The notes below the pieces were generated by a model. The model had not been told where the DNA came from and searched no databases. It saw only the letters and a program-made list of their open reading frames with translations. From Bilabrum cf. latius (Eukaryota), in the NCBI GenBank assembly GCA_965178125.1, contig OZ237741.1, positions 310,001 through 374,000 of the forward strand: a stretch of DNA of 64,000 nt, in the 5' to 3' direction. Of this stretch, positions 402-64,000 are shown one piece after another. Made by a program: the position numbers and the translations under genes. The first letter of the stretch is position 1. Each line of letters starts with the position of its first letter.

Positions 402-1904
402 ATGGTTTTCTACTAGATCTTAATCGCTGCGTTTATACTTGTCGCCACTGCCGTGGTTTTCAAGATTTAGCAGCACAATGCGCTGCCGCAAGATGCCCGA
501 GCCGTCATGCAGCAGAACGAGGACCACGAGTAGAATGACGGTGTTGAAAACGCGCGTGGCGATCAAGACGACTGGAATGCCGAGCATGACAGCGACGAAG
601 ACGAAAGTGGCGAGGAGGACGATGGAGACGATGGAGACGATCGCGACAACGCTGCTGCACTGATGAACATGGGTCCCAGGGCCCGTGCAGCTGCATTGAG
701 AAGAAGGGAGCGGGCCCATCGGCGAGAGATGGTTCGCGACATGAGGCGCGCCATGGTAGAACGCAACAACGAGGCCGAGCGAATCCGGCTGCAGCGCATG
801 GAGGAGCGGGACGAAGAGCAGGAGGAGCAAGTTCGAGAGTAGCGAATCCAAGAGCGCGCCACAAGAGATGCGTAGGAACGCCGACTGTGGAGTGCTTTGG
901 AGGCACTGGGCCTGGAGCGCGCTGATTGCCTCACGTCGGTGGCAGCAGATGGCACCCTGCTGCACAGAGCCCCACCCCAGCAAAACGGCACCTAGCGATC
1001 GCACCAGCCGTCTGGTACTATTAGACCCCCGGGTCTACCCGGGGGTGGTTCCTATTCAGGGGTGAATCCACAGAGCCTCAGGCTGGGGGCAGTCGCCCTG
1101 GCGTCGCTTCGCAGCCGGCTGCAATCGACCAGTGTCGCCGGCAGCAGCAGCAGCAGCAGCAGCAGTCCTACTGGCAGTGGCAGTTCGAGTCTGGCTGGAA
1201 ATGGCAAAGCGCTGATTGACATCCCGGAGATAGCTGGCTGCTTGCTGCACGGCCACGGTGCCCCCGACAGCCTAGCTGCTGCCCTGTCAATCTCTTCAGG
1301 TCAGGTAAAAGCCGGGGTGGAAGTGGCAGCATCAGTCTCTAGTATTGGGCATGCAGGAGCTAGAGGGCTTGCAGCTGTCATTCGGAGCATGGCTGAGGGC
1401 GCGGAAGCGTTGATACATTCTGCAACAGACTAGGCTATCTCTGCCACAGGGTCGAGAGACAGACCAGAAAGTGCTGTTGAGCCAAGTCAAGCCGATGCCG
1501 CTACGAATCACTTCTCATCGCCAGCAGGCGCCTCCACTCGAAGTGCGGCTGGCACTGATGCTGGCACTTTCACCGGCTCACGGTCGATAGAAGCACAAAC
1601 ATTTCAAAGCCTTGGCTCCGAATGGCACGCCGTGCTTGCTGACGCACCAGTTGGTAGGCTAGTCGGCTGCACGCGAGCGGCGCTTCAGGCATGGCTTGCA
1701 ATGGAGCACCCCGGAAATGGCAGCTCAAGAGGCGATGCAACCAATGAGCTCTCAGTCAGTGCTGGGGCTGCAGGGAAGAAAGGTAAAGGGATTGTGATTC
1801 CTAGGTCTGGGATCGATGTTGACGCGGTGCATGAGTGGATGCTGCGCGATGCAACACCGGCAGTCGGGACCGATGCATCGGCAGTCGACCGACCACGTGA
1901 TTAA
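402..1904 (+). CDS. N-terminally membrane-anchored acidic/coiled-coil protein (~500 aa), weakly DDRGK1/UFBP1-like architecture; 7 in-frame TAG
   Basis: One frame from ATG 402 to TAA 1902-1904, interrupted only by TAG at 414, 468, 531, 840, 873, 993 and 1431. It starts MVFY*ILIAAFILVATAVVFKI*QHN (TM anchor), followed by a D/E tract and an E/R coiled coil. Track ORFs 1062 and 1632 are in this frame. Confidence 0.75.
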
Positions 1905-1957
1905 GTCGATGGCTATACCTGCAATCTTCTGTATCAACGGGTAAGCCCTTTTGAAAA

Positions 1958-3056
1958 TCACGCTTCCTCTTTCTTGGCTTCCCCAGACTTGTCGGCGGCA
2001 ACGTCTTCCGATGCCTTGCCCTCCTTGGCCCCTCCCGATGCGGCCCCCGCCCCAGAGGCAGCCCCCCCTTCCCCTTCCCCTTCTGCTTCTGCTTCACCCG
2101 CCTTGGTCGCAACAGCTGGCGACTTGCTGGACACCGTGGCGGGCAGCAGGTCCCGCAGAACCTTCATGAACTCTTCAGGCTCCTGCGCCCCGCTGAGGCA
2201 GACCTCCCTGTCGCTCCCCTCTGCACTCACGATGAAGTATGGCACCCCTTGGATGCGGTACTTCCGCATGTGCGAGTGCACTTCCTCGATGACCTTGTCC
2301 TCGTAGGAGCCAGTCAGCAGCACGTCCTCGCCCTCCTTGCGGGGCAGACCCGCCTCTTCCACCGCGTCCAGCAGCGTGGCTCTGTCGCCGAGGTTGCCCT
2401 TGCGCTCGAGGTAGACCCGGAAGAGAATCTCGGAGAGGCGGCACTGGGCCTCGGAGCCGTGCTTCTCCAGGGCCCAGGTCAGCAGCTGGTGGCCCATGGA
2501 GGTGTTCGCTGTCTTTCCACCCCAGTCAAAGTCGATTCCGACTGCGATCGATCAAGTCAGGCCAAAATGAATAGCAGCAGGGTGCCGACGCCACGGGGGC
2601 GCGGGGAAACACAGCAAATGTGTCAAGCAGGCAGTAACAGTGGTCAGCACCGGGTAGTTAGCGCAACAAGTCCGATACATTCTATTATGCATGCATATGG
2701 CATTTATGGGATCCCAGCTGCTCGCTTGTTAGAGCGGCCAAGGTGACTAGGCAGCCCATGACGAAGACAAAGTGCAACCCACCTGTTTTGCCTACTGAGG
2801 TCATGTATGGCAAGATCTGGGCTGTTCTCTCAGCTCCGAACTTTGCCTGATATCCTTTTAGCTTGTCCCTACCCTTGATCGGGAGCGTTGGGTCCAGGAA
2901 GAACGGAAACCATTTTATTTCGACCTCCTCCTTGCTTTTCAGGTACCCTTCCGTCACCGCTCGCTCGAGAGCAATATTCATCCTTCTCGACCCAACCAAG
3001 CACCAAGGACATATAATATCGCTTACTACTTTGACAAGCACGCGCCTCGATGCCAT
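1958..3056 (-). CDS. DSBA-like thioredoxin-fold oxidoreductase (FrnE family), 2 exons
   Basis: SDIICPWCLVG active-site motif and IQGVPYF cis-Pro loop. Exon 1 is 3056-2783, a GT-AG intron spans 2782-2542, and exon 2 is 2541-1958, giving GKTVGIDFDWGGKTANT. Ends in TGA; no TAG. Confidence 0.9.
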
Positions 3057-3216
3057 CCTGCCTCAAGCTTGTGCCACAGATGAAACTCTCGAGCTGATGC
3101 GACGTGGCATCGTCCACCGCATCCACATTTGATTCCGAACTGATCTAGGAACGTTCGTTTTTGCCTCAACGGCAAATTGTCCGAATTTGTATATTCAAGA
3201 AGACACAGAGCACGCC

Positions 3217-4474: not shown

Positions 4475-4496
4475 TCTGATCTGATCTGATCTGATC
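4471..4496. repeat. (CTGAT)5 microsatellite overlapping the stop codon of the ankyrin/EF-hand gene
   Basis: ctgatctgatctgatctgatctgatc read directly from the sequence. Confidence 0.9.
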
Positions 4497-4774
4497 ATGG
4501 GGCTGGATATTGGCCTATAGAATCGTGAGAGAAGGTGGCGTACTATGGCTAGAGAAGGTGGCCTACTGTGGCTGGTCAGGGTGTTGCAACAATGCTGTCG
4601 GCTCGGTATGCTTGGGTCGGTATTATACGTGCCTTCGATATCTGCAACTATTCTTGTTATGATCAACTGTGTTCTTGGTATATCACTTAATGCACTGGGC
4701 TGAGCTGAACCGTTCGGGACTTTGCTGTGCATGCCGAGCCCATGCGATGTTGGGCCTGGTCACTGGCCATGCCG

Positions 4775-6517: not shown

Positions 6518-6770
6518 GGAATTGCTACTTCTGTGGCTCTCTACCACAAGCCTTTTTGATTGAGGTGTGTGTCGTGTCGGCAAAAACTGGCGGTAATTCG
6601 GAATCTTATTAAAACCTGGCTAAAGGCTAAACCGGAAGTCAAACAATCCATTGAATCAGCAAAAATGGCAGGAATCCAGACTTGCAGAATAAATCTGAGC
6701 TTTCCCCGGCTTACTACTGCACATTGATCCATGGAGGCAGCTGCCATGAAGATGGCTGGCATTCGATCCT

Positions 6771-7391: not shown

Positions 7392-7815
7392 GACTGGGCC
7401 TGCGAACACAGGTTAGTGTACTGTTGAACCCACCGCTGGATCTGTGGACATTGCGGCGAAGTTGAGCACTCTGATACTTCGATCCTTCTCACAATATAAT
7501 CGATTGGCTTGGATTTGTTTGTTTGTACCTTATGTACTTTGCAAGATGTTTGCTGGTTGATTGCCGATTCGGGCAACGTGGCCAAAAACCAGTCCACAGA
7601 AGGGAGTTGCGTGTAGTACTAGGGCCTACTCGAAGGTTTGGCCGCCTGCAGGCCCGGTCCGGGCTGGCAGCGCCGGCGGTGGTCTAGGCTGCCTAGAGTG
7701 CCCCTGGTCAAGCTTCAGACTTCCCGAATCACAAGAACCGCATAGCTAACTAACTTCCAGCCTTTCCGCAATCGCAACAAGGCAGCAGTCGTCAAGTCAA
7801 ACAAAACTCTGCTGT

Positions 7816-10800
7816 TCACTCCTCGCCCGTGCCCTCGAATAGCTCAGAGAGCTCTGCGAGTAGCACGGCGGCTTGCGCGGCATTCAGGCCACGATTGGAA
7901 GAACCCCCATCCAGGTCACCAAGCATGGCATCGCTTTCCTCTTCAAAATCATCACCGTCCTCATCGTCCTCATCCTCACCTGCCGGCCCCTGCCCGCCAG
8001 GCCGCATCCATTTCGGAATTTCATGCAGCACGTCCTCCCTCACCTCCTCCCTCAAGCTGGCCACGTACTCCATCAACCGACTCGCTGAGACACCAAGTTC
8101 CCTCACACCGACGACAGAAGCGCGCCGGCTTCCCCCCCTACTGGACTTGCTTCGCTGCTGGTGTTGCTGCTGCTGCTCTAGTTGTGGGCGGCTCTGCACC
8201 CTCCGCCGTATGTCACACAGCGCGCCCGAAGGACAGCACAGGAGCCACGCAGCCGAGGTACACTCCCAGCACGATGCGCTGCTTCCCGACAACTCATCAA
8301 ACTGCCAGTCAGGCTGCATACGCCTCCTCCGATCACGGGACCCATGCCCAACCCCGCTGCCACCAATGCCGCCTCCCCAGCTACTGCCCCCTGAATCATG
8401 TGCCCGGAAGCAGCATGGCGCCACCAGGGATGCAGCTGCCATGCTGACGGGCGGCAGCGGGACCCGGCCCACCGAGTCCCTCAGTCGTGGCAGCCCAGCG
8501 GGGGATACGTGTTCCCTGGCCGCCACGAAGGATGACATGGGGTTGGCTTTGCGCTTGCGACGCACCGGTCCCGTTCCTGGATCCGTGCCTCCTTGGGCAC
8601 CTCCGTCACCATCGTCGCCATCGTCTGCGTCCTGCTCCCCGCCCGCCGCCTCAAACAGAGCCAGCTGCAGCTCGTTTCGCCTCGACTCGGCTGCGGTGTA
8701 CTCATACGATGAGACGATCACACCTTCCACGATGCTGGTCAGAATGAGCGTGACCCCGACATAGTAGAGGATGAAGTAAATCGAGCACCACCGCGAGGTC
8801 TGGTTCACTGCCGGGTACAGAATCTAGTTCCAGTTGTTTGAGGTGGCAATCTGGAACAGGGCGAGCAGAGCATACGGCAGACTGCGGAAGGTGTACACCT
8901 GGCCCTGACCCTCGTCGTCGTCGATGCCGGCATCATCGTCGCCCGTCACTGGCTCCAGCCCCCCCTTGACGTGCCCGAATAGGCGCAGCCCCACGAGCCC
9001 AAACGAGTATGTGACGGAGCAGTACAGAACCGTAAAGATCACGCTGGCACGCAGCACGCTGGACGAGGCCCTGGAGCCCGTGATGTTGTCGATGAAGCCA
9101 CGCAGTGACGGCACCACCACAACCAGGCGCAGCACCCTGAGCGCTCTGGACACCTCGAGCCAATCGACGTGCAGAGTGGACAGATGCTGCTTGGCACCGA
9201 GGAACAAGGCGACCGAGGCAGTGAGAGACCACACGAGAACGACGAAATCGAATGCGTGCCAGCCGGAGTTGGCCAGCCATCGCACAATGCCGCCGGTGGA
9301 AGCCACCCTCACCGCGACCTCAATCGCCTACAGCAGCAAAAACACCACAGCTGCAAGATCCATCATCGGGACCCCTTTGCCCCTGCACTCTTGGGACCAC
9401 CTGCCGTGCGATGCAAGGCACTTCTCGTAGTCCACCTGCTGTTGCACCGTCCAGCCACATGCAGTTACAGCAGAACCTACGGATATGGCCAGTGCAAAGT
9501 AAGGAAACCAGGGCGACCACACCACCTTGCGCGCAGCGGCCCGCAGCCGAGCGTGCCCCACCTGGCCGCTAGACCCACCCAGCATGCAGCACCAACCGAC
9601 CCCGTCCTGCTCGTTCCTGCGCGTGTGTTCCGTCCGGACTGCGTCTGCGCTGGCCCTCCCGGTCCCCTGCAGGCTGTGCTGCTCCACGGCGAGAGGCACC
9701 GACTGCTGCTTCGTCATGTCCAGCAAGGACGAGTCAATGTGCAAGGGCTGCCTGCCGGGAGACTGGGGTGCAGAGACGCCCATGCCGAGGCTTTGCTGAG
9801 GGTCGCCAGGGCCAGCTTCATTACCGGCGTTGTTCTCCTGCCGCTGGTACCGTCGCCCGCACACCTGCCAGCAGGGCACTGCCTGCATGCCCTGAGGAGC
9901 GATGCCCACGAACTGCGGAAAGGCTAGGAATTCCACCGCCGACAGCATCCCTTCCCCGCCCTGTCCATCCTCCACGTCGAGCGCTGCAAGGAGTGCCCTG
10001 GCCGCTCGCGGTCGCATCCCATGGCTCCTCCACAGCAGCTCCTCGAACACCGATCGCACGACAGGGTCGTCCACAGGAAGCACGCCTGCCTGCGAACACT
10101 CCCTCGCAAACGCAGCCTCCCTCCAGTCGCCCGGCAACCGCTGCCATTCTGAAGGGTCTTGATCTGGCTCGGTGAATCGCTCGAACGGCACAGAGGACCG
10201 TGTCTCCTGTTGGCTGCGGCGCCGATGAGTCTCCGCGCTTCTCTAGCGCTTGCCGGACTCCATCGGATGCCCGTCGGCAGACGAGTCCGAGTCTTCCTCG
10301 CGGATGTGCCTGCGTCCGACCGAGGAACTCCTGCCACCCAGCCTATGCTGCCGCAGCTGAAAAGCGTTCGGGGCCACCGGCATGCGGCTGAAGAACTGCG
10401 GTTTCCCTCGCTAGGCGGACTTCTCTGCCTCCCCAACGGCACGAGGCAGGTCGCTGGGAGGCAGCGGCACTGTGGTGCTCAAGCCCACCTGCCTGTGCTT
10501 GCGTCGCTCCACGAGGTATCCAGCTACCTTGAATGCTGCTACCAGAGGAAGGTAAGCCTTGACCCGTAGCCGTCTCCTAGATTTCTCTTGCACGTCGTTG
10601 TACAACTCGAACGTGATTGCCAGCAACAAAGGAATGATCACCCACAGAAAGACCCAAAGCGACGACACGAAGAACAGCACGGCCACCACGGGCCTAGCCG
10701 CGAAGGCCGGATAAAACACCGTGGGATACGACTCGGTGCTCGACAGGATGTTGATGGCCACCGCAGCGGCCCCGAACGAATCGAAGTTGTCGCCAGTCTT

Positions 10801-12888
10801 GTGGTACCCGTCCACCTGCTCGCTGGAGAACAGCTGGCAGCCTAACGTCGCGTAAAAGAACACAACGACGCCGAACAGTGCCGCAAGCGGCACCATGGCT
10901 TGCAGCGTGCGCGACACTGCTGCCAGCTGTCTCCGTAGATCAGGACTACGCACAATGAGCAGCAGAGGGCGAAGGATCCTGCTCCACCGGAACGAGGACC
11001 TTACAAAGAAGAGATAGTACAGCACCCAATCGAGAGCGCAGTAGATCAGGACAATGAAGGCAGCATTCTCCCATTTCTTGTCTTGGAACATGAGGAAGCT
11101 CTGCGGGAACCCGGAGCACGCTCGCGCGCAAGACGCCGGTGGTTGTTGTGCCTTGCCCCGGCCTTGAGCAGCATCCGCGAATTCGCTGGCAAGCAAACCT
11201 TCCTCAAGTTGCACGTAGCCGGTGCTCGCTACGGGCTTCCGGTCTTCATTTCCTGCACTCGCGCACCCACAAGCCCTCGCCATCGATTTCCACGGGCGCC
11301 TTGGGTCTGAGCACGGCCTCACGAACAGCTCAGCCACAGCTCGCATGTACTGATCTGTCGCCAGTACAACCAACAAAGCAGCCTCGATTGATCCGACGGC
11401 CCAGCTGAACTTCGGGTTTGACCGGGCGGGCACATGAGTCTCGTGCTCGAAGAATGCAAGTGCCATGAGACCCACAGCTGCCAGCGTCATCACGTGTCCC
11501 CAAAGGTCGGCAAGAAAAAGCTTTGCAAACGGATGCTGCGGAGAAACCAGATCGGTTTCTCGGCTGGCATCAGCATCAGCCATCAGCTCGACCGCGACCT
11601 CAAACAGCTCGTCATCCTTGCTGTGCTCCAGCAAGGCTCTCGGGGTGTTCAAATGCCCGCTGCCAGCCCCACCACCTGGAGTTGTTCCTTGCTCTCGATT
11701 TGACGATGGGTCCCCGCCAGCACGCTCCAAAGTCTGAATAGACCGGTATCGCTCCGGGACACCCGGCGGGACAACAGCTGGGCCGTGCCCGCCAGTCCTA
11801 AGCCCCTTCACTTGCTGCTGTTTCTGCTGCTAATGAGCGCCGCTGAGGCCGATCGATGTTGCCCTCGCTCTCTGCACGCTCTGCTCTCGGGCAGCTCGAA
11901 CGGCCTACAGCGCCTCATCGGCCAGACGACGCGTATCGTTGCTGGGCTGGACTCCGCCTCGCGAAGCCCCTGCTGGCTGGCAACTCGAGCAAGCAGCGCC
12001 GCAGCACGGTACGCAGCAAGCGCAAGCGATGCTGGCAAGGCCGCAGAAGCCCAGCGCGCGCTCCGCCTTCCTCTGCTGCAGCCGCGCGGCAAGAATCTCG
12101 ATGAAATCATCCTCCGCAGCAGCATCTTGTTGCCTCGTGGGAACCTCGTCGCCTGCTCTAGCGCCATCCTGTGATGCATCACGCCAACCACCTTCGCTGC
12201 TGCCTTCGCTGCCATCGCTGCCGCCATCCGCCAGACCTGCCTACTGCGGCGCTGAATGCTCGCCCTGATCGGTCGCTCTAGACATGCCAGACCACTGCTA
12301 CACGGGCGCTCCAACAGATGCATCGGACTTCACCGTGTCCAAGTCGGCTCCCTATCCGTTCCGACTTGGAGGCTGGGGCCACTGTGTTCTGGGCTGCATC
12401 GCCTCTGGGGTGTCAATGCGGCTGAGCTCTCTCACAGGTGGGAGCATGGTTCTCATGCTCGGGCTCTGTGGAGCTCCAGCTTGACCTCCCGTGGTCCAGG
12501 TGCCTCCATTTGCTGCTGCAGTGCTCGGTGCATGAGGACGGGCCGGTGGACTTGGTATCCGGGACGGCTGCGGCGCGTGGGCTGGCTAGCCGAGCAAGCC
12601 TTTCATCTGCCCTGCAGATGCTGTTTGGCTCCGAGAAATCTACTTGGATTCTTCGTTCGGAAACCCATCCTCTGCGAGACTGCTAGCATGTTCGCCGGCA
12701 GCGGAGCCTCGGCGCTCCGGTCGGGAGTCCGTGCTGCCGGACAGCTTTGCCTTCTCAAGTCGTTTCTAGCGCAAAATTGATCTCATCCGCATTGGTCCTA
12801 CAATTGACGCCCAAGATACTCCCTGCTTCCTGCTCATCCGGCGAGACCGCACCCGCTGCATCTGATTGGCCCTGGCATCATCGTCCAT
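7816..12888 (-). CDS. Two-pore channel (TPC-family 2x6TM cation channel), ~1690 aa, intronless, 12 in-frame TAG
   Basis: Two voltage-sensor/pore repeats: S4 segments RWSRILRPLLL and RALRVLRLVV; pores NFDSFGAA..ILSSTESYPTV and TFRSLPYALLALFQIATSNNWN. Track ORFs 7816, 8824, 9328 and 10411 share one frame, broken only by TAG. ATG 12888 is the first ATG after an upstream TAA. Ends in TGA. Confidence 0.88.
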
Positions 12889-13225
12889 CGAGCCAGCAGT
12901 GGGCAGCGATGAGGAGGGATCTGCATCTTAAATAAAAGGGGCATATGACTTCAAATGAATACCATGTCATGACGATTGTCATCATCAGACGAAACCATGC
13001 AAAGGCAGACCTCGAGAAGCTATCGAGCCTTAGCAGAACATACCTGGTGGGGAGCTCTCCATATCGGTTCAATCCTGGGCAGGATCTGCCCGTTCGAGAT
13101 TGAGCTGTACTATTTGTAGCTGCTAAGTGTAGTTTTGTGCTGAAAAGTGGAGCACTGTTGATCTTGCTGGGCTCCGAATTGGAGCACACCGCCTCGGCAA
13201 GCAAAATTGGTCGCAGTCAAGCAGC

Positions 13226-15660
13226 ATGGACCACCAAAGAGGCATTGCTTATGCAGAACGTACCATGTTTTCCGCGCAGTCCCGTGGTGCCCGGCTGGCC
13301 TTGGCGTCATCCCACAGAGAGGAAGCTGTCTTGAAAACAAGAGAGTATCTTCGCCGGCTGGGGCGAGCTACAGCGCTTGAAAGCATGCCATGCGTCCATA
13401 TTGCAGGGACAAAGGGTAAAGGATCAACCTGTGCGTTCACAGAGAGTATTCTGCGACGGAGTGGGCTGAAGACTGGTGAGGCAAGCATGACTGCAGCCAG
13501 GGCTGCGATGTGCAACAGTGTTATCACAGCGATAAGAAGTATGCAAGTGGCCTTCTGCGCAGGTTTGTTTGTTTCTCCACACCTCACAACTGTCAGGGAG
13601 AGGTTTAGGATCAACGGTAAACCAGTAGCCACGGCGGTGTTCTTGCGTTGTTTTTGGAGGGTTTGGGACACGCTGAGGGCATGGAGACACCGAGAGCCAA
13701 GCGAAACGGAGATGATGGAAGCCGCCGGTGCATGCGTGAAACAAGGAGCGGGTTCAAAAGCTGGCGGTTCGTCGTGGAATCCGCTTGCAGCTGCTGACCT
13801 GGTGCAGCCTGCAGTCCCTGGCTTCTTCCATCTCGCAACGCTGGTTGCCTTCGAGATATTCATTGGTAAGTACACAGCCCAGCTCGCCTACTCGTGCGAA
13901 TACTAATCTGCTGTTTTTATTGGCGTTTTGCTCGCCTGCGCACCCGGTGCTACGACGAATAGCCTCAGCAGCCGTGCAGATCTATGCACGGCCGCAGCTG
14001 CCGCCAACCCAAGCTCGCGTTGCAAGCAGCTCACTCCGCCCTTCACTCGAATCAACCAAATTTCGCAGAAGAAGGCGTTGATGTTGCGGTGATAGAGGTC
14101 GGTATGGGCGGCAGACTAGACGCAACCAACGTGATACCATTCCCTGCGGTGACTGGCATCGCGACCCTAGACTACGACCACGTTGACGTGCTCGGAGGGA
14201 ACATCCGGTCGATTGCGAGAGAAAAAGCAGGCATCATGAAACGCGGATGCCCTGCACTAGCTGTCAGGCAGCCCATCGATGGAGCCGAGGAGGTGCTTGC
14301 GTCGTGTGCGTCACGAGCGGGTACGCGGCTGGCGTGGTCAGAATAGGATGCGCTTGCGCGGCACCACATCATGGCAAGATCGGGTGCATCCGCTGCAGCC
14401 AGTGCGATCCAAATCGATAGAGCAGGCGTTCTGTGTGATGAGAAAATCAGTGCTGGGGAAGAAGGCAAGCATGCCATGCTGGGACTCGCTGGAAGGTTTC
14501 AAGCGACCAATGCTGCCCTCGCTGCCCATTGCGCCGAGGCGCTTTGGAGGAGACTCGGTCAGTGGGATAGAGTGAGCACGGGCAAAACGTGCGATCTCAA
14601 GCTAGCAAAAGCGTGTTGGATTCGAGAGGTAGCATCCTTGAAGAGAGGCGATGCGGCTGACTCCCCAGCTCCCGCGACCAGCACTTCTGCCGCCTCCCAA
14701 GCACCGGATCTAGATCGTGTCCACGTCCACGGCGGCTACCTTGAGACCTTGCCCGAAGCAAGCCGCGCTGGACTGCAAACTGCGCGCTGGGACGGCCGCT
14801 GCCAGACGCTCCGGGTCCGGCTGGAGCGATTGGAACCGCAGGAACATGCGGCCGATTCAGGTGCAGGTGGTTCGCCAAGCGCGGCCGTGCCTTGCAGAAT
14901 CGTTGGGAGAGACGTGCTCGACGGCTCACTTCCACCGATAGGTCCTGTATTGGCTGCAGAGTCCCATACAGGGAGTGGACGGGGGCCGCAGTCTGTTGTC
15001 TGCTTGGATGGGGCGCACACAGAGAGGTCCATGCTCGAGTGCGTGCGGTGGTTCCACGAGGAGACAGGCGATCGTAAAGCCGAGTCGTCGCATGCGAAGC
15101 GAGTGCTGCTGTTCAACGCCTCGCACGAGAAAGACGTGGTGCAGCTGCTGCTACCGCTGACGTGCCTCTCCTGGGATGCCGTGGCCATGTGTCCCTTCGA
15201 TATGGCGAGGCCTAGCAGGAAACCGTATCCATCCGTCGACGGCTGCCTTAAGAAGTACGTATCTCGACTGATTGACGCAGGGGATACGGATGCGGCTGGC
15301 AGAATCCAGTCAGAATGGGGTTTAGACGAATCAAGTGCAGGCGCAGGTGCAAGCCCCCTACCGTCTTTGTCGCCTGGCGATAAGTTGGCTTGGCAGCGCA
15401 CACTGGCAGATTTGTGGCTTAGACTTGGTACTGAGTCCCGTTTCTCAGGTGCTCGACAGCGGGCCGCCGCTTCTGTTGGGATGGAAGAAGAGGTGCCCAG
15501 CGAGGTACCTGCCCCCGCTTTGTACGGCTCTGTGCGGGAGGCAATGATCGGCTGCTTGGGGTCGCAGGGCGAAGGGACTGAGGGTCATATCGCAAGCATC
15601 TTGTGCACTGGGTCTCTTTACCTTGTTGGGAATGTCCTTGGATACGTCGAAAGGATCTGA
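13226..15660 (+). CDS. FPGS: Folylpolyglutamate synthase, 3 exons, one in-frame TAG
   Basis: Motifs VHIAGTKGKGSTC, TGLFVSPHL..VRERFRING, IEVGMGGRLDATN, DH..VLG..I..IAREKAGI, GRFQATNAALA, WDGRCQ, LDGAHT and TGSLYLVG. Introns 13476-13562 and 13866-14068. TAG at 14344. Ends TGA TGA. Confidence 0.93.
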
Positions 15661-15906
15661 TGAGGCTGCCGGCGGTCGTGCTTTTCCCGCAGCACGGCGG
15701 CGCCGCGTGTGATGAGCGCGGTTAACAAAGCCTGGATATGGAGCTAGCTGCGCCTATTCCTAACGGATTAGTGCCACCTGATTAATAAAAGTAGCAAATA
15801 CTTCCCAGCGTTTCAGGGTTTTAGGCGTCTTACATCGTCATCTCAATTTTTTTGGTCGATTCGAATTACGTCACACCCTGCACAACACGTGACGTTGAGC
15901 AAAAAT

Positions 15907-18900: not shown

Positions 18901-19497
18901 AACCTGATCGGGACCACAGGTGTGGTCATTGAGCTGTGCGTGCACCTGCTGTCCTTTGTATTCAACGGCGCCCCCAAGCTGCTCGCCAGCAGGATGGCAA
19001 AGCACACTGGAAGCCGTGATAGCGCCACCGTGGACCTTGATAGAGCCGTCCTACTGCTCGCATTCGTGGATGGCGGTGCAACCGTGCTCTCCGGCATCAG
19101 CACCACCAAACTGCTGGGCCTGGCTATTCTTGCGGTCGCTCCAAGCCGGCTTACCCGAGTGTACTTTTTGCGGCCGTTCCTGGCTGCAGTGGCATTCGGC
19201 ACCCTGCACGTGTTGGTATTCGCCCCGAGCGCGCTGCTGTGCGTGGCTGATGCAACAAAGGCAGTTGGCTCTTGTTGCTGCGGTGCAGACGCTAGTTGGA
19301 GCTGCCTGGGTCCTCGGCGCGACGGGCAGGGCAACAGCGCCACGAAGGCGTCAAAGCTTGTGCAGGCCAATGACGTGTCGAGATCGGTGGGATACGGTGC
19401 CCTTCGCGACGAACAGGACCCCGCGTTTGGTTCTGGGCAGTCCATGTACGTGGAAGTGGAGGCATCGGCTGTTGCGAATGAGTGGGACATGAAATGA
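15907..19497 (+). CDS. NPC1/Patched-family (RND-type) sterol-sensing-domain membrane protein, ~1196 aa, 5 in-frame TAG
   Basis: SSD motifs SLEDEV and VLPFLLLAIGVD; DLLPSSSYM and GPPLQLVV; VYSDSVYFEYYQQY; GATVLSGISTTKLLGLAILAVAPS..RVYFLR. Four track ORFs in one frame are joined across TAG at 16126, 16138, 16150, 17263 and 18016. Ends in TGA. Confidence 0.9.
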
Positions 19498-48255: not shown

Positions 48256-51200
48256 TCACGAAGTTTCCATCGCTTGCTAACCGGATGCAGCTCCACCTTG
48301 TGCAGCAGATCCACTCCCAGCAGCGGCAGATGAGCTGCTGCTGCTGCTGCTACTGCTACTGCTGCTGGAGCTGGAGCTCACTGTAGCGACCGCTCCAGAT
48401 CTGTCTGCGGACGACTACTAGTGCTGCTGCGTTGCCAAACTAGCAGCCCTCTCCAGCTTATCCTAAACGCTCGAATCGTAGTGCTCCGGCATTTCGCAGA
48501 CCCACTCCCATATTTCACCGTTCCTTGGCTTGGCATCTTCGCATTGCTTGACTACCTAGCGACGGCTCTCCTCTTCGCCCTGGTCTCGCTCGAAAGCTAG
48601 CCAGAAAGCCCAGCCGTCCCCGTACCGTGGATCAATCGCAACAGCGCGGGAAAACCATCGCCTGGCCTTGTCGTAGCTTCGGTCTCTCCAAAGGAGAGCA
48701 GCAACCCTAGTGATCACGATCGGATTGCGGTCAAGCGTCCGGGCCGCCTGCACCGCTACGCCCTTCTGCTGTGCCCGAGGGGTCCGACTGATCTTCTCTG
48801 CCCACAGCAAGCCGCTCTTGGGGACCGCCTTGAGTCCTTTGGCAAGCAGGCTGTCGCCGGCCTTCTCCTGGCCGTGTCTTGCCTCCAGCCTGACACCCTC
48901 CACCCATAGCGCCTCGAGGTCAGGGTGCCTCTGCCTCCCGCTCTCAAGCAGAGAACGTGCTTTGGCGGGGCCGCTCCCCAGCCCCCCTTCGGAAACTGGT
49001 CTCTCTAGCAGGCGCGCTGCTCCGAGCCACACCCCTGCCGCTCCCGGGCACGCGCGGATCCCACGCTTATACGTTTCCATGGCATGCTGCACCTTGCCCC
49101 GTGAAGCAGCAGCCGCAGAAGAGGGCTTGCCATTCGCTAGCTCCATCGCCTGGGCCTCGTACAGCCGCCCTAATAGAATCCACAGGTCAGCGGCCTTGCC
49201 AAACTTGCTGATCCCGTCCGTGATCACGGCCTCGGCGTCTCCCAACCTGCCCTGCGACCTAAGAAGCCGCGCTAGCTTCAGCCACACTTCTACTGACGCT
49301 GCCGATGACTGCGCTCGGCGGAGAAGCGCCTCGGCGCGATCTGTGTGACCGGCTGACTTCTCCAAGCTGGACGCCGCGAGCCACAGAGGGCTGGACTTCG
49401 GATTGGCCCTGATCGCCTCTGCTAGCACCTTCCTGGCATCATCAAGGCTGCTCGATTCACGGAGGTGGTGCGCGTACAGCATCCAGAGCTCTTGCGAGCC
49501 TGGGCACGCCTGCACCGCCTCCTGCAGCAGCGCTGTGGCCGCCTCAGGAGTACCGTCTCGGCGCTCGAGGGCGACTGCCTGGGCCCACACGTTCTTCTGG
49601 TCGGGGTACGCCTTGAGGACCGACGCGTAGCACGCCCTGGAGCATGCGACAAAACCCTGCATCTCAAACTGAGCTGCATCGGCCAGCCACGTGCGAAGCC
49701 TGTCTGCTTCCTCAACCCCGAGTCCCACCGTCGCTCGCACGATTGCAGCCGCAGTGAGAGGACTGCTGGCACCCTCCGCCTTCCTGGCGTGCTCAAGCCA
49801 GTTGGCCCTGCTGATGATGGCTCCACGGGCCGACAGAGATTTCACCGCCATTCCTACCACCTTGTCAATGTTGGCCGCCTTGCCCTTGGCCTCTTCTAGC
49901 TCCGCTGCTGTGATCCAAATCTGCGGTTCAGTTGGGTTCGCCTTCCTTGCCTTGTTTAAGACCTTGCGAGCGTTCTCATAGGTCTCAATTCTGGCGAGAG
50001 CAAGCCAAAGCTCGACCGCGCTGGGGATTTGCTCCACGGCTGCGGCGAGGAGCAGCCTCGCTTCTGCCTCGTCTTCGAGCTCGACTGCCGCTTTCCAAAG
50101 CTGCACGCTACCAGGGATACTTTCGATGGCAGCGCGCAGCACTGCCTTCTTGCCAGCAGCGGTGTTTTCGAGCTCCGACGCAGTGAGCCAGATCTTGACT
50201 GAGTTTGGCACATTGCGCACTGCCTCTGCCAGGATCCCTTGAGCCTGATCAGGGGGCAGTAACGTGGCGGCTTCCACCCACACGTCCTCGCTGGAAGGGC
50301 ACGCCTTTGTGCCGTCGAGGATGAGTTTACGTGCCGCGGTTGTCTTGCCCACACTCGCCTCAAACCTGGCTGCTGTGATCCAGGCCATAGGCTGGGACGA
50401 GTTGGTCGCAACCAGGCTGCGGAGCACTTCTCTGGTCTGGTCTACGTCAGTGACAGAGCCGGACGCGGCGGCCCGTGTCATGCTCGTCTGCAGCTGGGAC
50501 GCGTACCCAGCGGGGTCGAGCACGCTCTGCCCCCCAACCTGCGCCCCTGCTGCCGCCAGCGTGCTCTCCAAGCGCTTTGCCCTGGCATTATTCAATGTAA
50601 TGGATGACGGTGTGGTGCTCATCGTCGATGCTAGGCCCGTGGCGGAATCGGTGCCAGCACCGGAAGCAGCCGCTGATGAGGAGGCAGAGCCACCGAGGGG
50701 CACGCCATCGGGCGCCTCTTGCGCGCTAGAAGGCTGCCCTGGCGGCTGGGCGGCAATGCCAGCGCCTTGTAGTAATATGCTGTCTGGCACTGGGACGAAC
50801 GACTCTTTCTGGCTCCCGCGGTCCTCTCGATTTCGAGCTCTCGCCCCGCTTTCCTCGGGAATCGATTCCCAGTCTGTCATGCTCATGGATGACAATGATT
50901 GCTTTGCATTGGCATGTTGTTCTGCAATGGAAATCGCACCTGTTGCGCGGCTTCGCTTGGCGCTTTCGCCCATCCTGCTGCTAGGACCTTGAGCTTCATC
51001 GTCTGCGCCCCTCTTTCGCTTCCTCCTTCGGACGGCCTCATCCACACTGGCATACACCTGGTCCGCCTCCAGGTCTTCTGCATCTGCGCCTCTTGGTTGC
51101 CCGCCCTGGCCGACTGGATCGGGCCCGTCTCCGCCGCTACCATCCGCAAGGCCAGTTGCCCCGCGTCCGCGTCCAGGCACGTAGCCAGTCGGTGGTGCAC

Positions 51201-51424
51201 CAGTCCTCAATACACCAGCGGGGCCTATATCTGCTTTAGTTACAAATCCAACTGCGCCTCTACCGAGTCCTGGGACGTATTTTCTCTGCGATGAGACGGG
51301 CAACGACAATGAACCGCATCGATCGATGTCAGCACATGAACGCAAATCACCATGTGCAACAGCATCTTACCGGCGCTCGGGCATCAGAGTAAGTATTGGG
51401 AGCTTTGACATTGACACCAATCAT
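48256..51424 (-). CDS. PRP6: Pre-mRNA splicing factor Prp6 (U5-102K), 2 exons, 5 in-frame TAG near the C-terminus
   Basis: Motifs YVPGLGRGAVGFVT, DLEADQVY, DWESIPE and PVPDS, plus HAT repeats. Exon 1 is 51424-51371 and the intron spans 51370-51286. Homology continues past TAG 48556 (CEDAKPRNGEIW, cf. conserved C..AEPRHGE.W) to TGA 48256. Confidence 0.95.
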
Positions 51425-51512: not shown

Positions 51513-57452
<5,940 letters not shown>

Positions 57453-57597
57453 GATCTCCTTTTGAACGAGCAAAATGACAATTGAATTTTTTTGAATCCC
57501 ACGCCGTTTCTACCAGCTCCAGCTGTACCCGACTCCTGTACTTAATAAAATCTTTAAGTACAGCGAACAGACCAGAGTGTACTATCCAAACAAGGCA

Positions 57598-60500
57598 ATG
57601 CGCCGGGCGGCAGTACATTGTTGCAGTCATCTTCAAGCTTGGTCACGGCTTTGCGACCAACGGCAGTTCAAGCGACCTTTGCCGCGACACATTGGCCAAC
57701 TAGCGGGCATCTAGTGTTAGCTCGGGCTGGCACATCCAAGGGCGCTTTAGATCGGCTTGATGTCGGCTTGGGACTCTTCGGCCCGGTAGCAAACGCTTGC
57801 TCAGGTTCGCATCGCAGCAAGGCAGCAGACGATCGAACCAGCACACGGTTTAGCAACCCGGCGAAATGCATCCAGCAACTCAAATCAGGTCAAAAGCTAT
57901 GATGGTTAGCTTGGTGCAAGCCATCCATCTCTGGCTAGATTGCAAGGGGTCCCGAGGGTGCAACGGCCCGCAGGGGACCCCACAGATCAGGTCGCTGCAG
58001 CACGAACTCTGCTTGAGAGCCAGTCGTAGCCGCTTAGATCGGGCTCCTATCACTATTCTGAAATGGATGATGCTGCTCACTCTCCTGCTGGTCCTGGAAT
58101 TCACCGGAATCTGACGAAGGGAGGTAGCTACCGCAGTCTCCTCGCCACTGCAGAGCGGCTTCCATCGAGGTCGAAACATTCCCGAGTGTCACTTGACAGA
58201 GCAATACATTCATCAAATGACGGCGCCAAAGGTACTTGGGCAGACCAAAGGGCCGTCGATAGCCACCAGCACAGGGCTGATAGAGGTGACAGGCGCCGAT
58301 ACACAGGTCCATGTGCAGGTGAAATGGTACAGTCCACCGACCATATGAGCTCGAGGGTGGGCCCTCACGATTTGGATGAATCTAACAGTACCGTGTATGA
58401 CGGCACGATTCGAAGCAGCAGAGTTGATGGTTCTATGGCAGGAGCCACGCCGGCTGCTGAAAGGTTGCTGCACTTGCCTGCGCCGTCTGATTCTCTCCAA
58501 AGCTTGCAACTGCACAGTCCTGCAGGAACTATTCAAACTGGTCTTGCAAGAGGTACTCAATTCGACAGGGCTGCTCCAGGTTCAAGGACAAGCGGTCGCC
58601 TCGGTCCTATTGTTCGATCTGGCCGATCGGTTTCGGCTGGCGACGCTTTGCTGCCGAGATCCCAGCACTTTCTGGGCGTTGCGGAGAGATAGAGAGAAGA
58701 CCAATAGCGTCTAGGGGATACACATCCAGGAGATTCGCGCCGGTTGGGTCCAATGGCTCGCCAATAGCCTCGACGCCCGACGCCGTGTGTTCCCGAATAG
58801 AGAGTCGCAAGAGAACCACTCGCTGGGATCCAGCATGAGGACCGGCGAGCAGAAGGTTCGATTGGTTTGCATATGCCTAGGATACATGCAGGATCTAGGC
58901 ATGCTGGCGCTAACAGTGGTCGGTCAAGTGGTGTTGCTGGCAATGCTTCGTTCTAGAGCTCGCTTGGGGCGCAGCAGATCCCGCATGACGCAGATGCCGA
59001 TTCACGAAAGCGGACCCAAGGACACTAGCCCCACATGATGCGACCTTCGACGGAGATATTTGGGGGCAGGCCGCACCCACCAACAGCGAGGGCTTGGACG
59101 GCATCGGAGCAGCACCCTGCGAGCGGCTAGCTGCACATCGGAGACCATGCTGTGGCACCTGTTTCGCCGCTGAAACGAAACGGTCACACAGAGGCCCCAG
59201 CCTAGTCCCAGAGCGGATTTGCTCCATCTTTTATCGGGAGCGAGTCGGCCCCTCTTCACCAGTCGGTGACCCGCAGGTGGGGGGGCGGACTGGGCGAGGA
59301 CATGGAAGAGCGCGATGAGAGTCGCCGTGACGCAGCCTCCGGGCCGCTGGGGCAGCGACTGGGTCCATCTGAGTCTTGGCAGCCACCTGCACTGGGCTCT
59401 CTCCCAGCAGAGAGGCAGAGCGTCGACTCGCGACAGTCCTCCTAGTCGCATACATTCCACCAGTCCGAGGTCGACGAGACTGAGGCGCGGCCTCCCCTCA
59501 TGCACTAGCTATCCATGGAGACTGCAGCCACGGAAGATGCCCCAGTGTGGCAGGGAGGAGATATTCATGATGGAATCAAGGATATGTCTGATGCTATCAA
59601 GTTGCAGAGGCTTCGGGAGCAGTGGAGATAGTCGCAGAGCGAGGCCCAGCAAAGGGTGCATGGACACGGCGACGGCAACGAAGTTGGAGTGTGGAAGAAG
59701 TCGCAGAGTGGTCCAGGAGCGAGCGATGATGAACATTCCAATGACAACGCACCTCCTCGAGTGCCTGGTAAAGACACGATGGCCTCGGCAGTCCGGCGTG
59801 GATCAAGCCTGCTGACTGACGTGTCGGACAGCTCTAGCGATGAAGGCCCCCCACCGCCTCCTCAGTCCACCAGCATCGGGCCGCAAGCAGCTGACCACCA
59901 TGGCCCATCTCCAACAGGACAACGCGGGCTGTAGCGCGGCATGAAGCCCATGGGACTCAGCATGGATGTGGTCCCGCCTGCTGCCGTCCGGAGGGAAAGC
60001 ACCGAAGAGCTCGAGTCTCCCTCGCCCACCATGGCCGCTCGACTGGGTCTGGGTGGCGGATTCGCCGCACCGGCTTCGCCCAGAGGTGCTCTGGTCGATG
60101 CGAGCGGACAGACTGACAGCCAGTCGATGCATTTTGCAAGCCAGCTGCAGCAGCATGCAGAGCAGACCAAGGCAGCTGCGCCCCGCGGCCGTCGTGCCAC
60201 GATTGGCGGCGGGACGCAGGCGGCATCGTCGCTGCTGTCACCTGTGCGGGAGGAGTCGCAGGAAGCGGGCACGAGCGACGACTCGAGCAGCGTGGACCGG
60301 TCGCCGCGATCCCCAGCTGAGTCAGATGCTAGCCCGAAGCTGCATGCTCTCGGCAAGTTGCGTCGATCCAACACCACAGGTTCCGTGCCGTCTGCGAGTT
60401 CACGCTAGAGACCGATCGTCGGATTTTCAAGCCCACCAGTTCCACCGTCTGAACGCGGGCTGTAGCGCGGCATGAAGCCCATGGGACTCAGCATGGATGT

Positions 60501-63500
60501 GGTCCCGCCTGCTGCCGTCCGGAGGGAAAGCACCGAAGAGCTCGAGTCTCCCTCGCCCACCATGGCCGCTCGACTGGGTCTGGGTGGCGGATTCGCCGCA
60601 CCGGCTTCGCCCAGAGGTGCTCTGGTCGATGCGAGCGGACAGACTGACAGCCAGTCGATGCATTTTGCAAGCCAGCTGCAGCAGCATGCAGAGCAGACCA
60701 AGGCAGCTGCGCCCCGCGGCCGTCGTGCCACGATTGGCGGCGGGACGCAGGCGGCATCGTCGCTGCTGTCACCTGTGCGGGAGGAGTCGCAGGAAGCGGG
60801 CACGAGCGACGACTCGAGCAGCGTGGACCGGTCGCCGCGATCCCCAGCAGATGGCGAGGCAGGGCAAGCAAGGAAAATCCCGCCGATGCTTGCCTCAGCA
60901 GGGCGCTCGTCCACCACTGAATTCGCCTGAAACTCCCACGAAGGCGAGTACATCGCGCCAGTGAGCTCCCTTCAGCGTCTTGCTCGGCCTGCTGCCGGTG
61001 CGGCACCACCTGCAGTACACCGGAGCTCGACGCTGGGTACTTCAACCACAGCCGCGCAGTCAAGGCCAGCCCGAAGATCCACTGCGAGAAGGAACACGAT
61101 GCAGGTTCCGACTTCGTTCGAACTGTCCCGCAAAGGCGGCGCCGCTCGTCCCCGCAGGCGACGCGTGAGCGATTTCACTGCCCTTGATTCAGCAAAGAAG
61201 CTTAGCAGTGCAGTGGCGGTCGAGGAGCTGCCCGCCACAACCGGGAATGCCCCTTCAGGTGTGGCTGTCGGCCGAATTCGCCGCCGTTCGGTCACCAGCG
61301 GCAGTGGGGGTCCAACCGTTCCACAGCTGCTTGCGTCAGCTGCAAAGCGCCCCGCAACAGCAGGAACCACTACCAGCAAGGGCGCCGTGGTGGGCTCCGT
61401 GGACGGCCGCTGGTCAGATCGGGGTAGTGCTCCAGAATCTGAGCTGGACAGGATGCTTGTCGGGCTGCAGGCCAAGCCGGTGGACGACGACTCTGTCGCC
61501 TCCACAGAAGATGAACGCGGATCAGAGAGCAGCAGTGGCAGCGGTTCCAGACAGCGCGAGTCGAGGACTCGACAGGCGATGGCACATCTGGGCCGGGCCA
61601 TGTTCTCGGCTTCGATGAACACCACCTCTTCCGTGTTTTCTGGACCATCGCGATCGAAATCCACCGGCAGGGACAGGCCTCCCAGAGCCCCGCATGCTTC
61701 GCTGAGTGGCTTTAGTCTCCCTTTCACAGAGGAAGAGAGCCGCAGGTCGGTGGAAGACGGGGCTAGGGCCAAGCATTAGATTCACCACGTCGAATCGTGG
61801 ATGTCTGTTGAAGACGATGCTCAATTCGCTGGACGCACGCTGACTAGGCGATCCTCTTCCTTCCTGCCCCTTGCAGCGGACGCGCCTGCTGAGGCAGTCG
61901 CCCTGCGAGGACAGTCGTTGCTTCGATCCCAGCTCGATGACTCAGTTCCAGACGCCAAGTTCGAGTGGAAGCTGGGCCCCGCTCTCGGCAGCGGCTCCTT
62001 CGGCGCTGTGCACCGAGCCCTCGTGGTGGGAAGCGGCAAACAAGTGGCAGTGAAGCGCATCATGCTGCCCGAACAGTTCAGGAAGCAGTGGCGGGCGGCT
62101 ACGGCAGCAGGCTCGGAAAAGCCTGAACTGGGCGCTGCTGCTGAAGTGAAAGCGGCCGAGTAGCTACGATCTATGCTGGAGTAGCAGATGGACAGTGCGC
62201 GTGGTTCGGCAGGAACGGGCTGGAGTCCAACCTCATCTAGGAGCACCCCATCCACAGGGCCGACCGCGAGGCAACCCTCGGCCACTACTTCGGACAGCAA
62301 GTCTCTTTGGATTGGTGGCAGGAGTTCAACATATGGAAAGAGCCTGAAAACAAAACATGCTGGCGCTACCGGCGATGACAATGACCACAGAGGCAGGTCT
62401 GATTCGCGGGAGACGACCCCGAGCACGCTGCACGCACTCAAGCGCGTGCTGAAGACCAGCGGGTCGGCCGCTGCCACGGAAGTCCGCGAGATTTTGCGAG
62501 AGGTTGATATGTTGCGCAGGCTGAGACACCCCCACATCGTGCAGTATCTTGGTGCTCGCGTGTCGAGCGATGGTGGGCACCTGGATTTGGTGATGGAGCT
62601 CGTGGACGGTGGGACCGTGTCATCCATGCTCAAGGACTACGGCCCCATGGATGAGCAGCTCGCATCTGCTACCACCAGGCAGCTCTTGCTGGGCCTGCAG
62701 TACTTACATGACAGGTGCATCATGCATTCTGACCTTAAGCCAGCCAACGCGCTGCTGACTTCGGGAGCTGTGGTGAAGCTCGCGGACTTTGGCTGTGCCA
62801 GGCGGATTGACGGCCTGGTCAACGGCACTCTATCATCCACTTCTTCCAGCGAGTTGTCTGAAAGCAGGGCTGGGACCGGTGCGAAGAGTTCTGGGTCAGA
62901 GTCGGGGAAGGCCTAGACGAAGCCAAGCTCGCGGTCTATTCGGGGCACGTTGCCGTACATGGCGCCAGAGGCAATCCGGGGCGAACTCACTGGACTTCCT
63001 TCCGATATCTGGGGCGTGGGTTGCACGGTCCTCGAGATGCTGACCGGCACTATGCCATGGATTGACCAGTTCGACAACCGCATCGCGCTGATGTTCCATG
63101 TCGGGCACACCAGCAACCATCCTCCTATTTCAGACGCGATCTAGGGCCAGGCGCGTGACTTCCTTGAAGTGTGTATGCGCGCCGATTCCAAAGAGCGGCC
63201 GACCGTCAGCACGCTCCTTGAGCACCCTTGGATCCGCAAGTATGCCAGCAGCTCACGGCAGGGGCTGCGCTCGGTCCTGTCCTTCAAATCTACCGGTTCA
63301 TCGGTACATGGCTCGGAGGCCGTCGGGTCGAAGGTTACGCGAGGCTCGCCCGGATCGTCTGGACAAGCGGCAGCGCATCTTGACGAAAGTCACGTTGATG
63401 TCGGGGCGGTGCCAGCCCTCAGCCCGGGAGCTACTTCAACCGAGGCCGGAAGTTGGAGCCCTAGGTCGCTGCTGGCTGTGGCGAGCATGGTCCGGAAGTT

Positions 63501-63558
63501 GCGTCGAACAAGACGCCGGAGAGGTGCTTCGCCCGTGTCACAGGAGTCACGTGGATAA
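57598..63558 (+). CDS. STE11/MEKK-like MAP3K with a long disordered N-terminus; >20 in-frame TAG and one in-frame TGA (60928)
   Basis: Kinase motifs LGSGSFG, VAVK, LRHPHIVQYLG, HSDLKPANAL, KLADFG, GTLPYMAPE, DIWGVGCTVLEMLTG and RPT...LL.HPW are in one frame, with TAG at 62161, 62182, 62914 and 63142. Ends in TAA. The start is uncertain (57598, 57760 or 58063). Confidence 0.8.
59921..60848. repeat. Apparently identical 397-bp direct repeat (59921-60317 and 60452-60848) with a 134-bp spacer
   Basis: Both copies run aacgcgggctgtagcgcggcatgaag...tcgccgcgatccccagc. The offset is 531 bp (in frame) and the track translations are identical. Confidence 0.95.
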
Positions 63559-63706
63559 ATAGTCAGAGCGAAAAGTTGTTTTTAGATCTAACCACAATTA
63601 GGAACAGATCTGATTAGAAAATAACCTCGCAGTGCACTTAGTTTCAGGCCTATGCTAGCTGATCACATATGGTCACTTCCCACGCAAACCCAAACATTTC
63701 CAAAAC

Positions 63707-64000
63707 TTATTGCTAGTCTTGATCCTCCTCCTCGCGCTGCCTTCTATTGAGAACACCAAGCGGCCCTGAGGGCTCGAACTCGTACCTGGACGGGTCCAAG
63801 AGGATGCTTGACTGACGTCTTTGCATCCCGCTCTGCTGTGGGGCCGGCGGGTCCGAGGCGGAGCGCCCTGGCCGCACAGCCGCACTCCCCGCTCCTCCGC
63901 TGTGTCCGCGCTACTCACCCTCTAAATCTCTCACGATAATGATCCCGTTGTTGGCAAGGAAGTGCCTCACGTCGTCCACCTCCCCGTCCCTCTCACCACC
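63707..64000 (-). CDS. 3' end of a gene running off the window (unknown product)
   Basis: Frame GGERDGEVDDVRHFLANNGIIIVRDLEGE*RG...RRQREEEDQD*Q ends at TAA 63707-63709, convergent on the kinase across an AT-rich spacer. Confidence 0.5.

Follow-up and report, generated by a model that had tools for sequence, protein, structure and literature searches.

GENE CONTENT OF THE WINDOW

The 64-kb stretch of contig OZ237741.1 that was analyzed here over its full length (positions 310,001 to 374,000; hereafter, the window) is tightly packed with eukaryotic genes that are encoded on both strands, and its GC content is about 60% overall (54 to 63% per 4-kb bin). It is nuclear DNA of a GC-rich, intron-poor eukaryote. 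The subject of this report is the genetic code in which these genes are written and, in particular, the meaning of the TAG triplets that stand within the reading frames of most of them. Nine large open reading frames (ORFs) carry the analysis; an ankyrin/EF-hand gene was looked at in addition. Five of the nine, encoding a mitogen-activated protein kinase kinase kinase (MAP3K)-like protein kinase, the splicing factor Prp6, a two-pore-channel-like protein, an NPC1-like sterol transporter, and folylpolyglutamate synthase (FPGS), have recognizable relatives among characterized eukaryotic proteins and contain TAG in frame. The coordinates, terminators, and principal database matches of all these genes, as well as their mapped introns, are listed in Table 1.

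Table 1. Genes and introns mapped in the window (X1, X5, and X6 are three of the four sequencing runs compared below)
Feature	Coordinates	Strand	In-frame TAG	Terminator	Matches and remarks
GT..AG intron, 93 nt, in the gene with EPEQAV repeats	7399..7491	-			Joint in X5 and X6
Two-pore-channel-like gene	7816..12927	-	12	TGA	Pfam Ion_trans in two stretches, 1.1e-41; PDB T-type Ca channels and TPC1
GT..AG intron, 123 nt, close to the 5' end of the channel gene	12921..13043	-			Joint in X5 only, not X1
Folylpolyglutamate synthase (FPGS) gene	13216..15660	+	TAG 14344	TGA	
FPGS exons	13216-13474, 13562-13864, 14068-15660+	+			Introns 13475-13561 and 13865-14067
NPC1-like sterol transporter	16153..19497	+	2 (in this part of the frame)	TGA	Pfam Sterol-sensing 1.9e-20 and Patched; PDB NPC1 3.5e-39
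Multi-pass membrane protein, 1629-codon frame	20202..25091	-	15	TGA	Family not known
Giant low-complexity protein with PUB domain, 6416 codons	25692..44942	-	44 (TAA 0, TGA 0)	TGA	
LARP4-like RNA-binding protein gene	45540..48089	+	0	TGA	
Prp6 splicing factor	48256..51366	-	5	TGA	PDB human Prp6 1.4e-182; Pfam PRP1_N and HAT/TPR repeats
2037-codon frame	51513..57626	-	28	TGA	Family not known
MAP3K-like protein kinase	60931..63558	+	5	TAA	Pfam Pkinase 2.6e-54; PDB MAP3K2/5
Ankyrin/EF-hand gene					Looked at in addition to the nine large ORFs

READING FRAMES OPENED BY TAG

Read by the standard code, the window has no stop-to-stop frame longer than 936 codons. Reading TAG as a sense codon produces top frames of 6416, 2037, 1703, 1629, 1277, 1144, 1036, and 875 codons, whereas with TAA as sense the longest frame is only 954 codons, and with TGA as sense the gains are scattered and reach 1615 codons at most. 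The frames of at least 500 codons sum to 2,824 under the standard code and to 19,889 with TAG as sense, compared to 2,842 with TAA as sense. Within the nine large ORFs (16,189 codons), TAG occurs in frame 112 times (0.69% of codons), and eight of the nine contain it. TAA and TGA are both absent from that frame, a result that is partly built in, as the ORFs are bounded by these two triplets; what counts as evidence is how long the frames are (up to 19 kb). In the remaining five frames of these ORFs, there are 80 to 174 TAG, 34 to 59 TAA, and 128 to 383 TGA triplets. Frames as long as 19 kb run without any frameshift. Some of the TAGs counted in raw frames are intronic or untranslated, such as the one in the FPGS intron at 13865-14067.

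A preliminary description of this DNA had placed TAG within essential domains of several proteins, and all five of its coordinates match the recomputed frames: 62914 and 63142 (codons 661 and 737 of the kinase), 8824 (codon 1367 of the channel gene, inside the second pore), 14344 (codon 92 of the FPGS exon 3 frame), and 48556 (codon 936 of Prp6, where further TAGs occupy codon 967, the tandem pair 982-983, and codon 1029). The same description reported a single frame at 25692-44924, where there is indeed one 6416-codon frame (25692-44942) with 44 TAG; its count of 24 consecutive ORFs in that frame, however, depends on the length cut-off.

A RELATED METAGENOMIC CONTIG

When metagenomes were scanned with Prp6, a single contig, L001 (9137 nt), was recovered; it encodes a Prp6 that is 77% identical to that of the window. 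The two are syntenic: L001 carries Prp6, the LARP-like gene (57% identity), and the N-terminus of the giant gene (51%; L001 positions 6956-9136) in the same order and orientation. L001 is unreadable by the standard code and opens up with TAG as sense, showing 7 + 11 + 4 = 22 in-frame TAGs in the three genes. There is no position at which TAG of the window is aligned with TAG of L001. Judging from these genes, in-frame TAG characterizes the lineage, and L001 is independent evidence of it.

Other searches for relatives yielded less. A word-based protein search with the C-terminal part of Prp6 gave only 6 distant matches, and relatives of the channel gene, sought in viral contigs, and of the 1629-codon gene, sought in genome contigs, were not found.

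The use of TAG differs strongly between the LARP4-like orthologs. The window gene has no TAG, and its 34 glutamine codons include only 2 CAA, whereas the ortholog in L001 (positions 3560-6412) has 11 TAG.

TAG CODONS IN SPLICED CONTIGS

Logan contigs of four runs, which come from three studies, were aligned to positions 7200-27199; these are assembled contigs, in which rare variants could be hidden. Run X1 provided long unspliced contigs that are identical to the window. In runs X5, X6, and X7, which come from two studies other than that of X1, the contigs show four GT..AG joints (13474>13562, 13864>14068, 7398>7492, and 12920>13044), each on the strand of its gene and each missing from X1. 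On the strength of these spliced joints, the X5, X6, and X7 contigs are taken to be RNA derived. A 5364-nt X5 contig covers 7641-12920, i.e., the whole coding frame of the channel gene with its 12 TAGs, without a single difference, and a 2300-nt X5 contig joins the three FPGS exons, again with no differences and with TAG 14344 kept (the FPGS joints are also present in X6 and X7). Pieces from X6 and X7 retain TAG 8824, and yet another X5 contig covers 19755-22843, a part of the 1629-codon gene, with 0 differences. Just 3 differing places are listed in the entire 20 kb, all of them intergenic and confined to 25331-25338, and the contigs of all four runs match the window at each TAG covered.

RNA editing, splicing-out, and base-calling error are excluded at the TAG sites covered. 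Retention of TAG in RNA was one of the checks proposed in the preliminary description, and in the spliced contigs TAG is unaltered at the covered sites.

AMINO ACID ASSIGNED TO TAG

In the alignments of the window with L001, 29 sites have TAG in one of the two genomes. The partner is glutamine at 13 of these (CAG at 11 and CAA at 2); the remaining partners are Ala, Arg, Glu, and Gly (two each) and Asn, Met, Val, Lys, Ser, Asp, Thr, and Tyr (one each), with no Leu among them. For comparison, glutamine accounts for 3.4% of the aligned residues, and CAG and CAA codons face glutamine at 51% and 50% of their positions, respectively. With substitution probabilities estimated from the same window-L001 alignments, the log-likelihood of the 29 sites is -74.1 for Gln, -105.7 for Lys, -108.9 for Arg, -113.1 for Ser, and -114.3 for Glu, with Leu outside the best six; the posterior is about 1 for glutamine and 2e-14 for lysine, the next residue. 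Most of this signal can be seen in L001, where 11 of the 20 aligned TAG sites face CAG or CAA of the window and where the posterior for glutamine is about 1 from these sites alone. In an alignment of 267 Prp6 sequences, one L001 TAG falls in a column with 74% glutamine, and another falls in a column in which glutamine is the commonest residue (27%).

A further, indirect argument comes from protein fragments of closer relatives, P0007 (97% identical), P0282 (80%), and P0283 (73%), the latter two of which are related to the 1629-codon gene. These are standard-code ORF calls that are known as protein only. At three of the four fragment boundaries where the window has no TAG, the break is located exactly beside a CAG codon of the window; the fourth boundary is beside GAG, and two fragments start 3 to 4 codons after window TAGs. 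Breaks beside CAG would fit the presence of TAG at those sites in the closer relatives. If TAG is glutamine, glutamine codons in the window are split into 15% TAG, 60% CAG, and 25% CAA.

Taken as a whole, these data make it very probable that UAG has been reassigned to sense in this organism, most likely to glutamine, and that UGA (predominantly) and UAA terminate translation, which corresponds to NCBI translation table 15. The distinction between a sense TAG and the stops TAA and TGA, which the preliminary description had proposed, holds on every test run: the RNA-derived contigs keep TAG, the relative uses TAG elsewhere, and the nine ORFs close in TAA or TGA. The likeness to table 15 had also been pointed out there, with the residue left open; it is borne out with glutamine as that residue.

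Several observations weigh against this assignment. The nine aligned TAG sites of the window itself face Asn, Arg, Gln, Met, Gln, Glu, Asp, Thr, and Arg in L001 and, taken separately, give Arg 0.39, Thr 0.37, and Gln 0.16, with the background model fitting better. These sites are located in poorly conserved stretches, and because they do not single out glutamine, the assignment for the window's organism depends in large part on kinship with L001. In the Prp6 alignment, nine TAG sites have enough homologs, and for seven of them the columns are variable and not rich in glutamine. The residues found opposite window TAGs in PDB homologs are Glu in human Prp6, Ser in MAP3K2/5, Ile in NPC1, and, in the Ca channels, Phe in the S2 helix and Val, Lys, Asp, or Asn in the pore, although these alignments are remote and the positions are variable. 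A tRNA scan of L001 found no tRNA, tRNA and Rfam scans of the 64-kb window detected neither a tRNA nor any Rfam family, and no eRF1 is encoded within the window. The tool that classified run X5 labeled it "RNA? (probably DNA)." Given that nine gene ends were looked at, TAG may occasionally serve as a terminator. Finally, a TGA at 60928..60930 (+) stands in frame between the frame at 57496-60930 and the kinase frame. This is the single non-TAG interruption that had been noted in the preliminary description, and it is real; it coincides with a dip of the codon-usage score, which is negative in 180-nt intervals starting at 60826-61006 and recovers at 61096, near the ATG at 61099, the probable start of the kinase. 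Judged by this profile, the TGA most likely is a genuine stop that marks a gene boundary.

ALTERNATIVE EXPLANATIONS

One alternative is an ambiguous TAG that mostly specifies an amino acid and terminates translation in some contexts, as in Condylostoma, the karyorelict ciliates, and Amoebophrya sp. ex Karlodinium veneficum. We consider it unlikely, even though it survives better than the others. The tandem TAG-TAG of Prp6 (codons 982-983) is found at about the place where human Prp6 ends (window residue 972 corresponds to human residue 931/941), and the sample comprises only nine gene ends. However, the Prp6 tail is conserved beyond that pair (SSADRSGAVA in the window versus SSAAQTGAVA in L001, which has CAG ATG at the corresponding position and reads on), so that even the tandem pair is read through. 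All nine ORFs reach TGA (8 of 9) or TAA (1 of 9, the kinase), from 7 to 493 codons past their last TAG, and the conserved C-terminus of the LARP-like protein (...SWR) is followed immediately by TGA in the window and by TAA in L001. Prp6 of L001 also ends in TGA, and the small sample of nine genes of the window and two of L001 showed no case of TAG as a terminator.

That TAG encodes some other residue, such as Leu (known from the rhizarian exLh), Ser (known from Scotinosphaera), Glu, Lys, or Arg, is still less likely. The nine sites of the window slightly favor Arg or Thr by the empirical matrix, and Phe, Ile, Glu, and Ser are seen at some window TAG sites in distant homologs. Against this, glutamine exceeds Lys, Arg, Ser, and Glu by more than 30 log-likelihood units over the 29 sites, from which Leu is missing altogether, more than half of the L001 sites face CAG or CAA, and one of them falls in the strongly glutamine-dominated Prp6 column.

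The assignment of both UAR codons (UAA and UAG) to glutamine, with TGA as the sole stop and TAA merely rare owing to GC richness, has a lower probability again. TAA is, indeed, the rarest of the three stop triplets (207 in 64 kb) and ends only one of the nine ORFs. Nevertheless, about 47 in-frame TAA would be expected if the TAA:CAA ratio matched that of TAG:CAG (112:463, with 194 CAA), and none was observed. When TAA is also read as sense, the top frames gain just 13 to 64 codons. The TAA that ends the kinase gene is followed by AT-rich sequence, and the one in the LARP-like gene of L001 comes right after a conserved C-terminus.

The absence of any reassignment, with pseudogenes, sequencing or assembly errors, RNA editing, or leaky stops read by near-cognate tRNAs as the cause, can be dismissed as highly improbable: nothing was found in its favor except the in-frame stops themselves, whereas only one of the three stop triplets occurs in frame and frames of up to 19 kb are free of frameshifts, four runs from three studies agree at the covered TAGs and spliced contigs keep them, a separate metagenomic contig has the same habit, and 44 TAGs read through with 90% efficiency each would, by calculation, leave about 1% of full-length product.

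PROPOSED MECHANISM

The mechanism suggested here is modeled on other lineages in which UAG has passed to glutamine. A tRNA-Gln with the anticodon CUA would decode UAG and would not pair with UAA; such a tRNA differs by one base from tRNA-Gln(CUG) and could be derived from it by a single change (PMC5304391). It would act alongside an eRF1 that no longer recognizes UAG efficiently (PMC5304391). CAG and TAG could then be exchanged by single C/T transitions in a nearly synonymous manner, which would account for the presence of TAG at different glutamine sites in relatives.

COMPARISON WITH KNOWN CODES

Nuclear codes that separate UAG from UAA are rare; they have been described in a rhizarian, in Iotanema, in the green alga Scotinosphaera, in an oligohymenophorean ciliate, in a few phyllopharyngean ciliates, and in Protocruzia (PMC11687900, PMC5304391). 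The closest match is Iotanema spirale (Fornicata), an anaerobic gut flagellate represented by a transcriptome only, in which UAG encodes glutamine and UAA and UGA are stops (Panek et al. 2017, PMC5304391). As in the window, UAG occupies glutamine positions in that organism, in-frame UAA and UGA are absent, and UAG is not seen as a terminator (PMC5304391). The gene ends are different: of 126 Iotanema genes, 104 end in UAA and 15 in UGA, with 7 truncated (PMC5304391), whereas TGA ends 8 of 9 in the window, and on this ground Iotanema was put aside as a candidate for the source of this DNA. The window also differs from Iotanema in being GC-rich and in having a Prp6 close to the eukaryotic consensus (1.4e-182 to the human protein); the Prp6 trees described below include no metamonad sequence.

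Among the ciliates, Hartmannula sinica, Trochilia petrani, and Protocruzia tuzeti also use table 15, with UAG distributed across the gene body as a synonymous codon would be (McGowan et al. 2024, PMC11687900). In a run with the standard table, 93.5 to 100% of their C-terminal protein alignments ended at UAA (PMC11687900). The window is set apart from the ciliates with UAG as glutamine by its GC content of 54 to 63% and its contiguity, which amounts to at least 64 kb here and to a 212-kb contig in X1. Such GC content and contiguity are unlike those of ciliate macronuclear DNA.

In the rhizarian exLh, UAG alone has been reassigned and UAA remains a stop, as in the window, and a tRNA whose anticodon is CUA is predicted; UAG stands for Leu there (PMC5304391), unlike here, where Leu is not among the 29 partners. 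Amoeboaphelidium protococcarum resembles the window in the change from stop to glutamine and is an algae-associated organism, but both UAG and UAA are glutamine codons in it (PMC5304391, PMC6299283), whereas sense TAA was found in 0 of 16,189 codons of the window. Codes with UAR as glutamine are known as well from hexamitin diplomonads, oxymonads, and many ciliates.

Amoebophrya sp. ex Karlodinium veneficum reads each of the three stops contextually, and in-frame stops occur in about half of its genes (PMC6394959, PMC12005148). [quoted passage not shown] The in-frame UAA and UGA that would characterize an ambiguous code of all three stops are missing from the 16,189 codons of the window. Amoebophrya sp. 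ex K. veneficum was rejected as the source of this DNA, being AT-rich and having all three stops in frame.

Apart from Iotanema, no report of UAG as glutamine in a GC-rich nonciliate was found in the literature search, which mostly did not extend to subscription journals and supplements.

OTHER FEATURES OF THE LOCUS

Identification of the FPGS gene comes from a PDB match (2.8e-13), with no Pfam family detected for the FPGS pieces at E values of up to 0.001. The label of the LARP4-like gene is a lead only; it comes from the best Atlas match of this TAG-free ORF, RRM_LARP4/La at 0.90, under table 11. A Pfam search with the 1629-codon membrane protein gave no match.

The Prp6 frames of the window and L001 lose similarity just upstream of SQRKYVPGLGRG (window 51291-51366, L001 316-360) and have no start codon there, so that the first coding exon would be outside these frames, upstream and behind a predicted intron. 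The first approximately 100 codons of the 2037-codon frame may be untranslated. Long serine runs are encoded at 51982-52081 in that frame (approximately 35 residues) and at 48330-48345 in the Prp6 tail (approximately 19 residues).

Repeats are found at several places. An 18-nt tandem repeat at 6920-7141 (-) encodes (EPEQAV/EPEQAE)n and belongs to the same gene as the intron at 7399-7491. At 5058-5926, approximately 12 tandem copies of a 23-residue unit (SPLHAAVHDEATPDDDTAGQDAQ) are encoded within the minus-strand frame 4775-6655, and the opposite strand is likewise open across this array. In the region of approximately 59700-60900 (+), a segment of approximately 130 codons (GLxRGMKPMGLSMDVV...SPRSPA) is present as two copies in one frame, each with its TAG at the corresponding position; either a genuine tandem duplication or one introduced by assembly could account for this.

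Within the channel gene, a 32-nt stretch at 8909-8941 is flanked by the same two loose ends in X5, X6, and X7, which suggests that it is shared with another transcript or locus. At 25190-25800, the long X1 contigs break, the depth increases to as much as 55 to 70, and short variant contigs and loose ends appear, suggesting that the interval separating the giant gene from the 1629-codon gene holds a repeated element.

PLACEMENT OF THE LINEAGE AND IMPLICATIONS

The nearest full-length Prp6 sequences are 39 to 49% identical to that of the window and are spread over the whole eukaryotic tree. In two single-gene Prp6 trees, the window and L001 form one long branch, which is placed outside a clade (Shimodaira-Hasegawa approximate likelihood ratio test, 99 to 100) of opisthokonts, a breviate, a heterolobosean, a glaucophyte, Rhodelphis, haptophytes, and green plants, and on the side of oomycetes, diatoms, a thraustochytrid, and unnamed sequences. 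Named alveolates, rhizarians, and metamonads are not represented in these trees, and long-branch effects are likely; because of the limited sampling and the long branches, the trees exclude little beyond an aphelid or a green alga. An aphelid origin, considered in view of Rhizopus as the best full-length Prp6 match, was rejected on the basis of the trees and the lack of sense TAA. Oomycota was the commonest phylum in the Atlas results for the LARP4-like ORF, a signal too weak for taxonomy.

The table 15 variant of the code is already known; the window probably adds a new case of it, from a lineage that comprises several members. The further suggestion of the preliminary description, an independent and undescribed reassignment, finds neither support nor contradiction in the present data. 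More tentatively, and as a possibility that falls somewhat short of being probable, UAG alone may have been reassigned to glutamine, in an event separate from those of Iotanema and the ciliates, in an unrecognized GC-rich and intron-poor lineage that uses UGA as its main terminator and that the single-gene tree puts outside the opisthokont/archaeplastid/haptophyte side. Its members would be the species of the window, the 97% relative, the relatives at 73 to 80%, and the 77% metagenomic relative represented by L001.

There is a practical consequence for annotation. Standard-code annotation fragments the genes of this assembly and of related metagenomic contigs, which need to be reannotated with table 15; the protein databases already contain such fragments (P0007, P0130, P0133, P0282, and P0283). 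The case would be unusual in combining a GC-rich genome and gene ends that are mainly UGA with an assembly in long contigs and with relatives of graded divergence. As a further instance of a split code, it would be a data point on how eRF1 and tRNA(CUA) separate UAG from UAA. If the interpretation of an independent reassignment in such a lineage is true, the split between UAG and UAA would need no AT-rich, UAA-terminating background.

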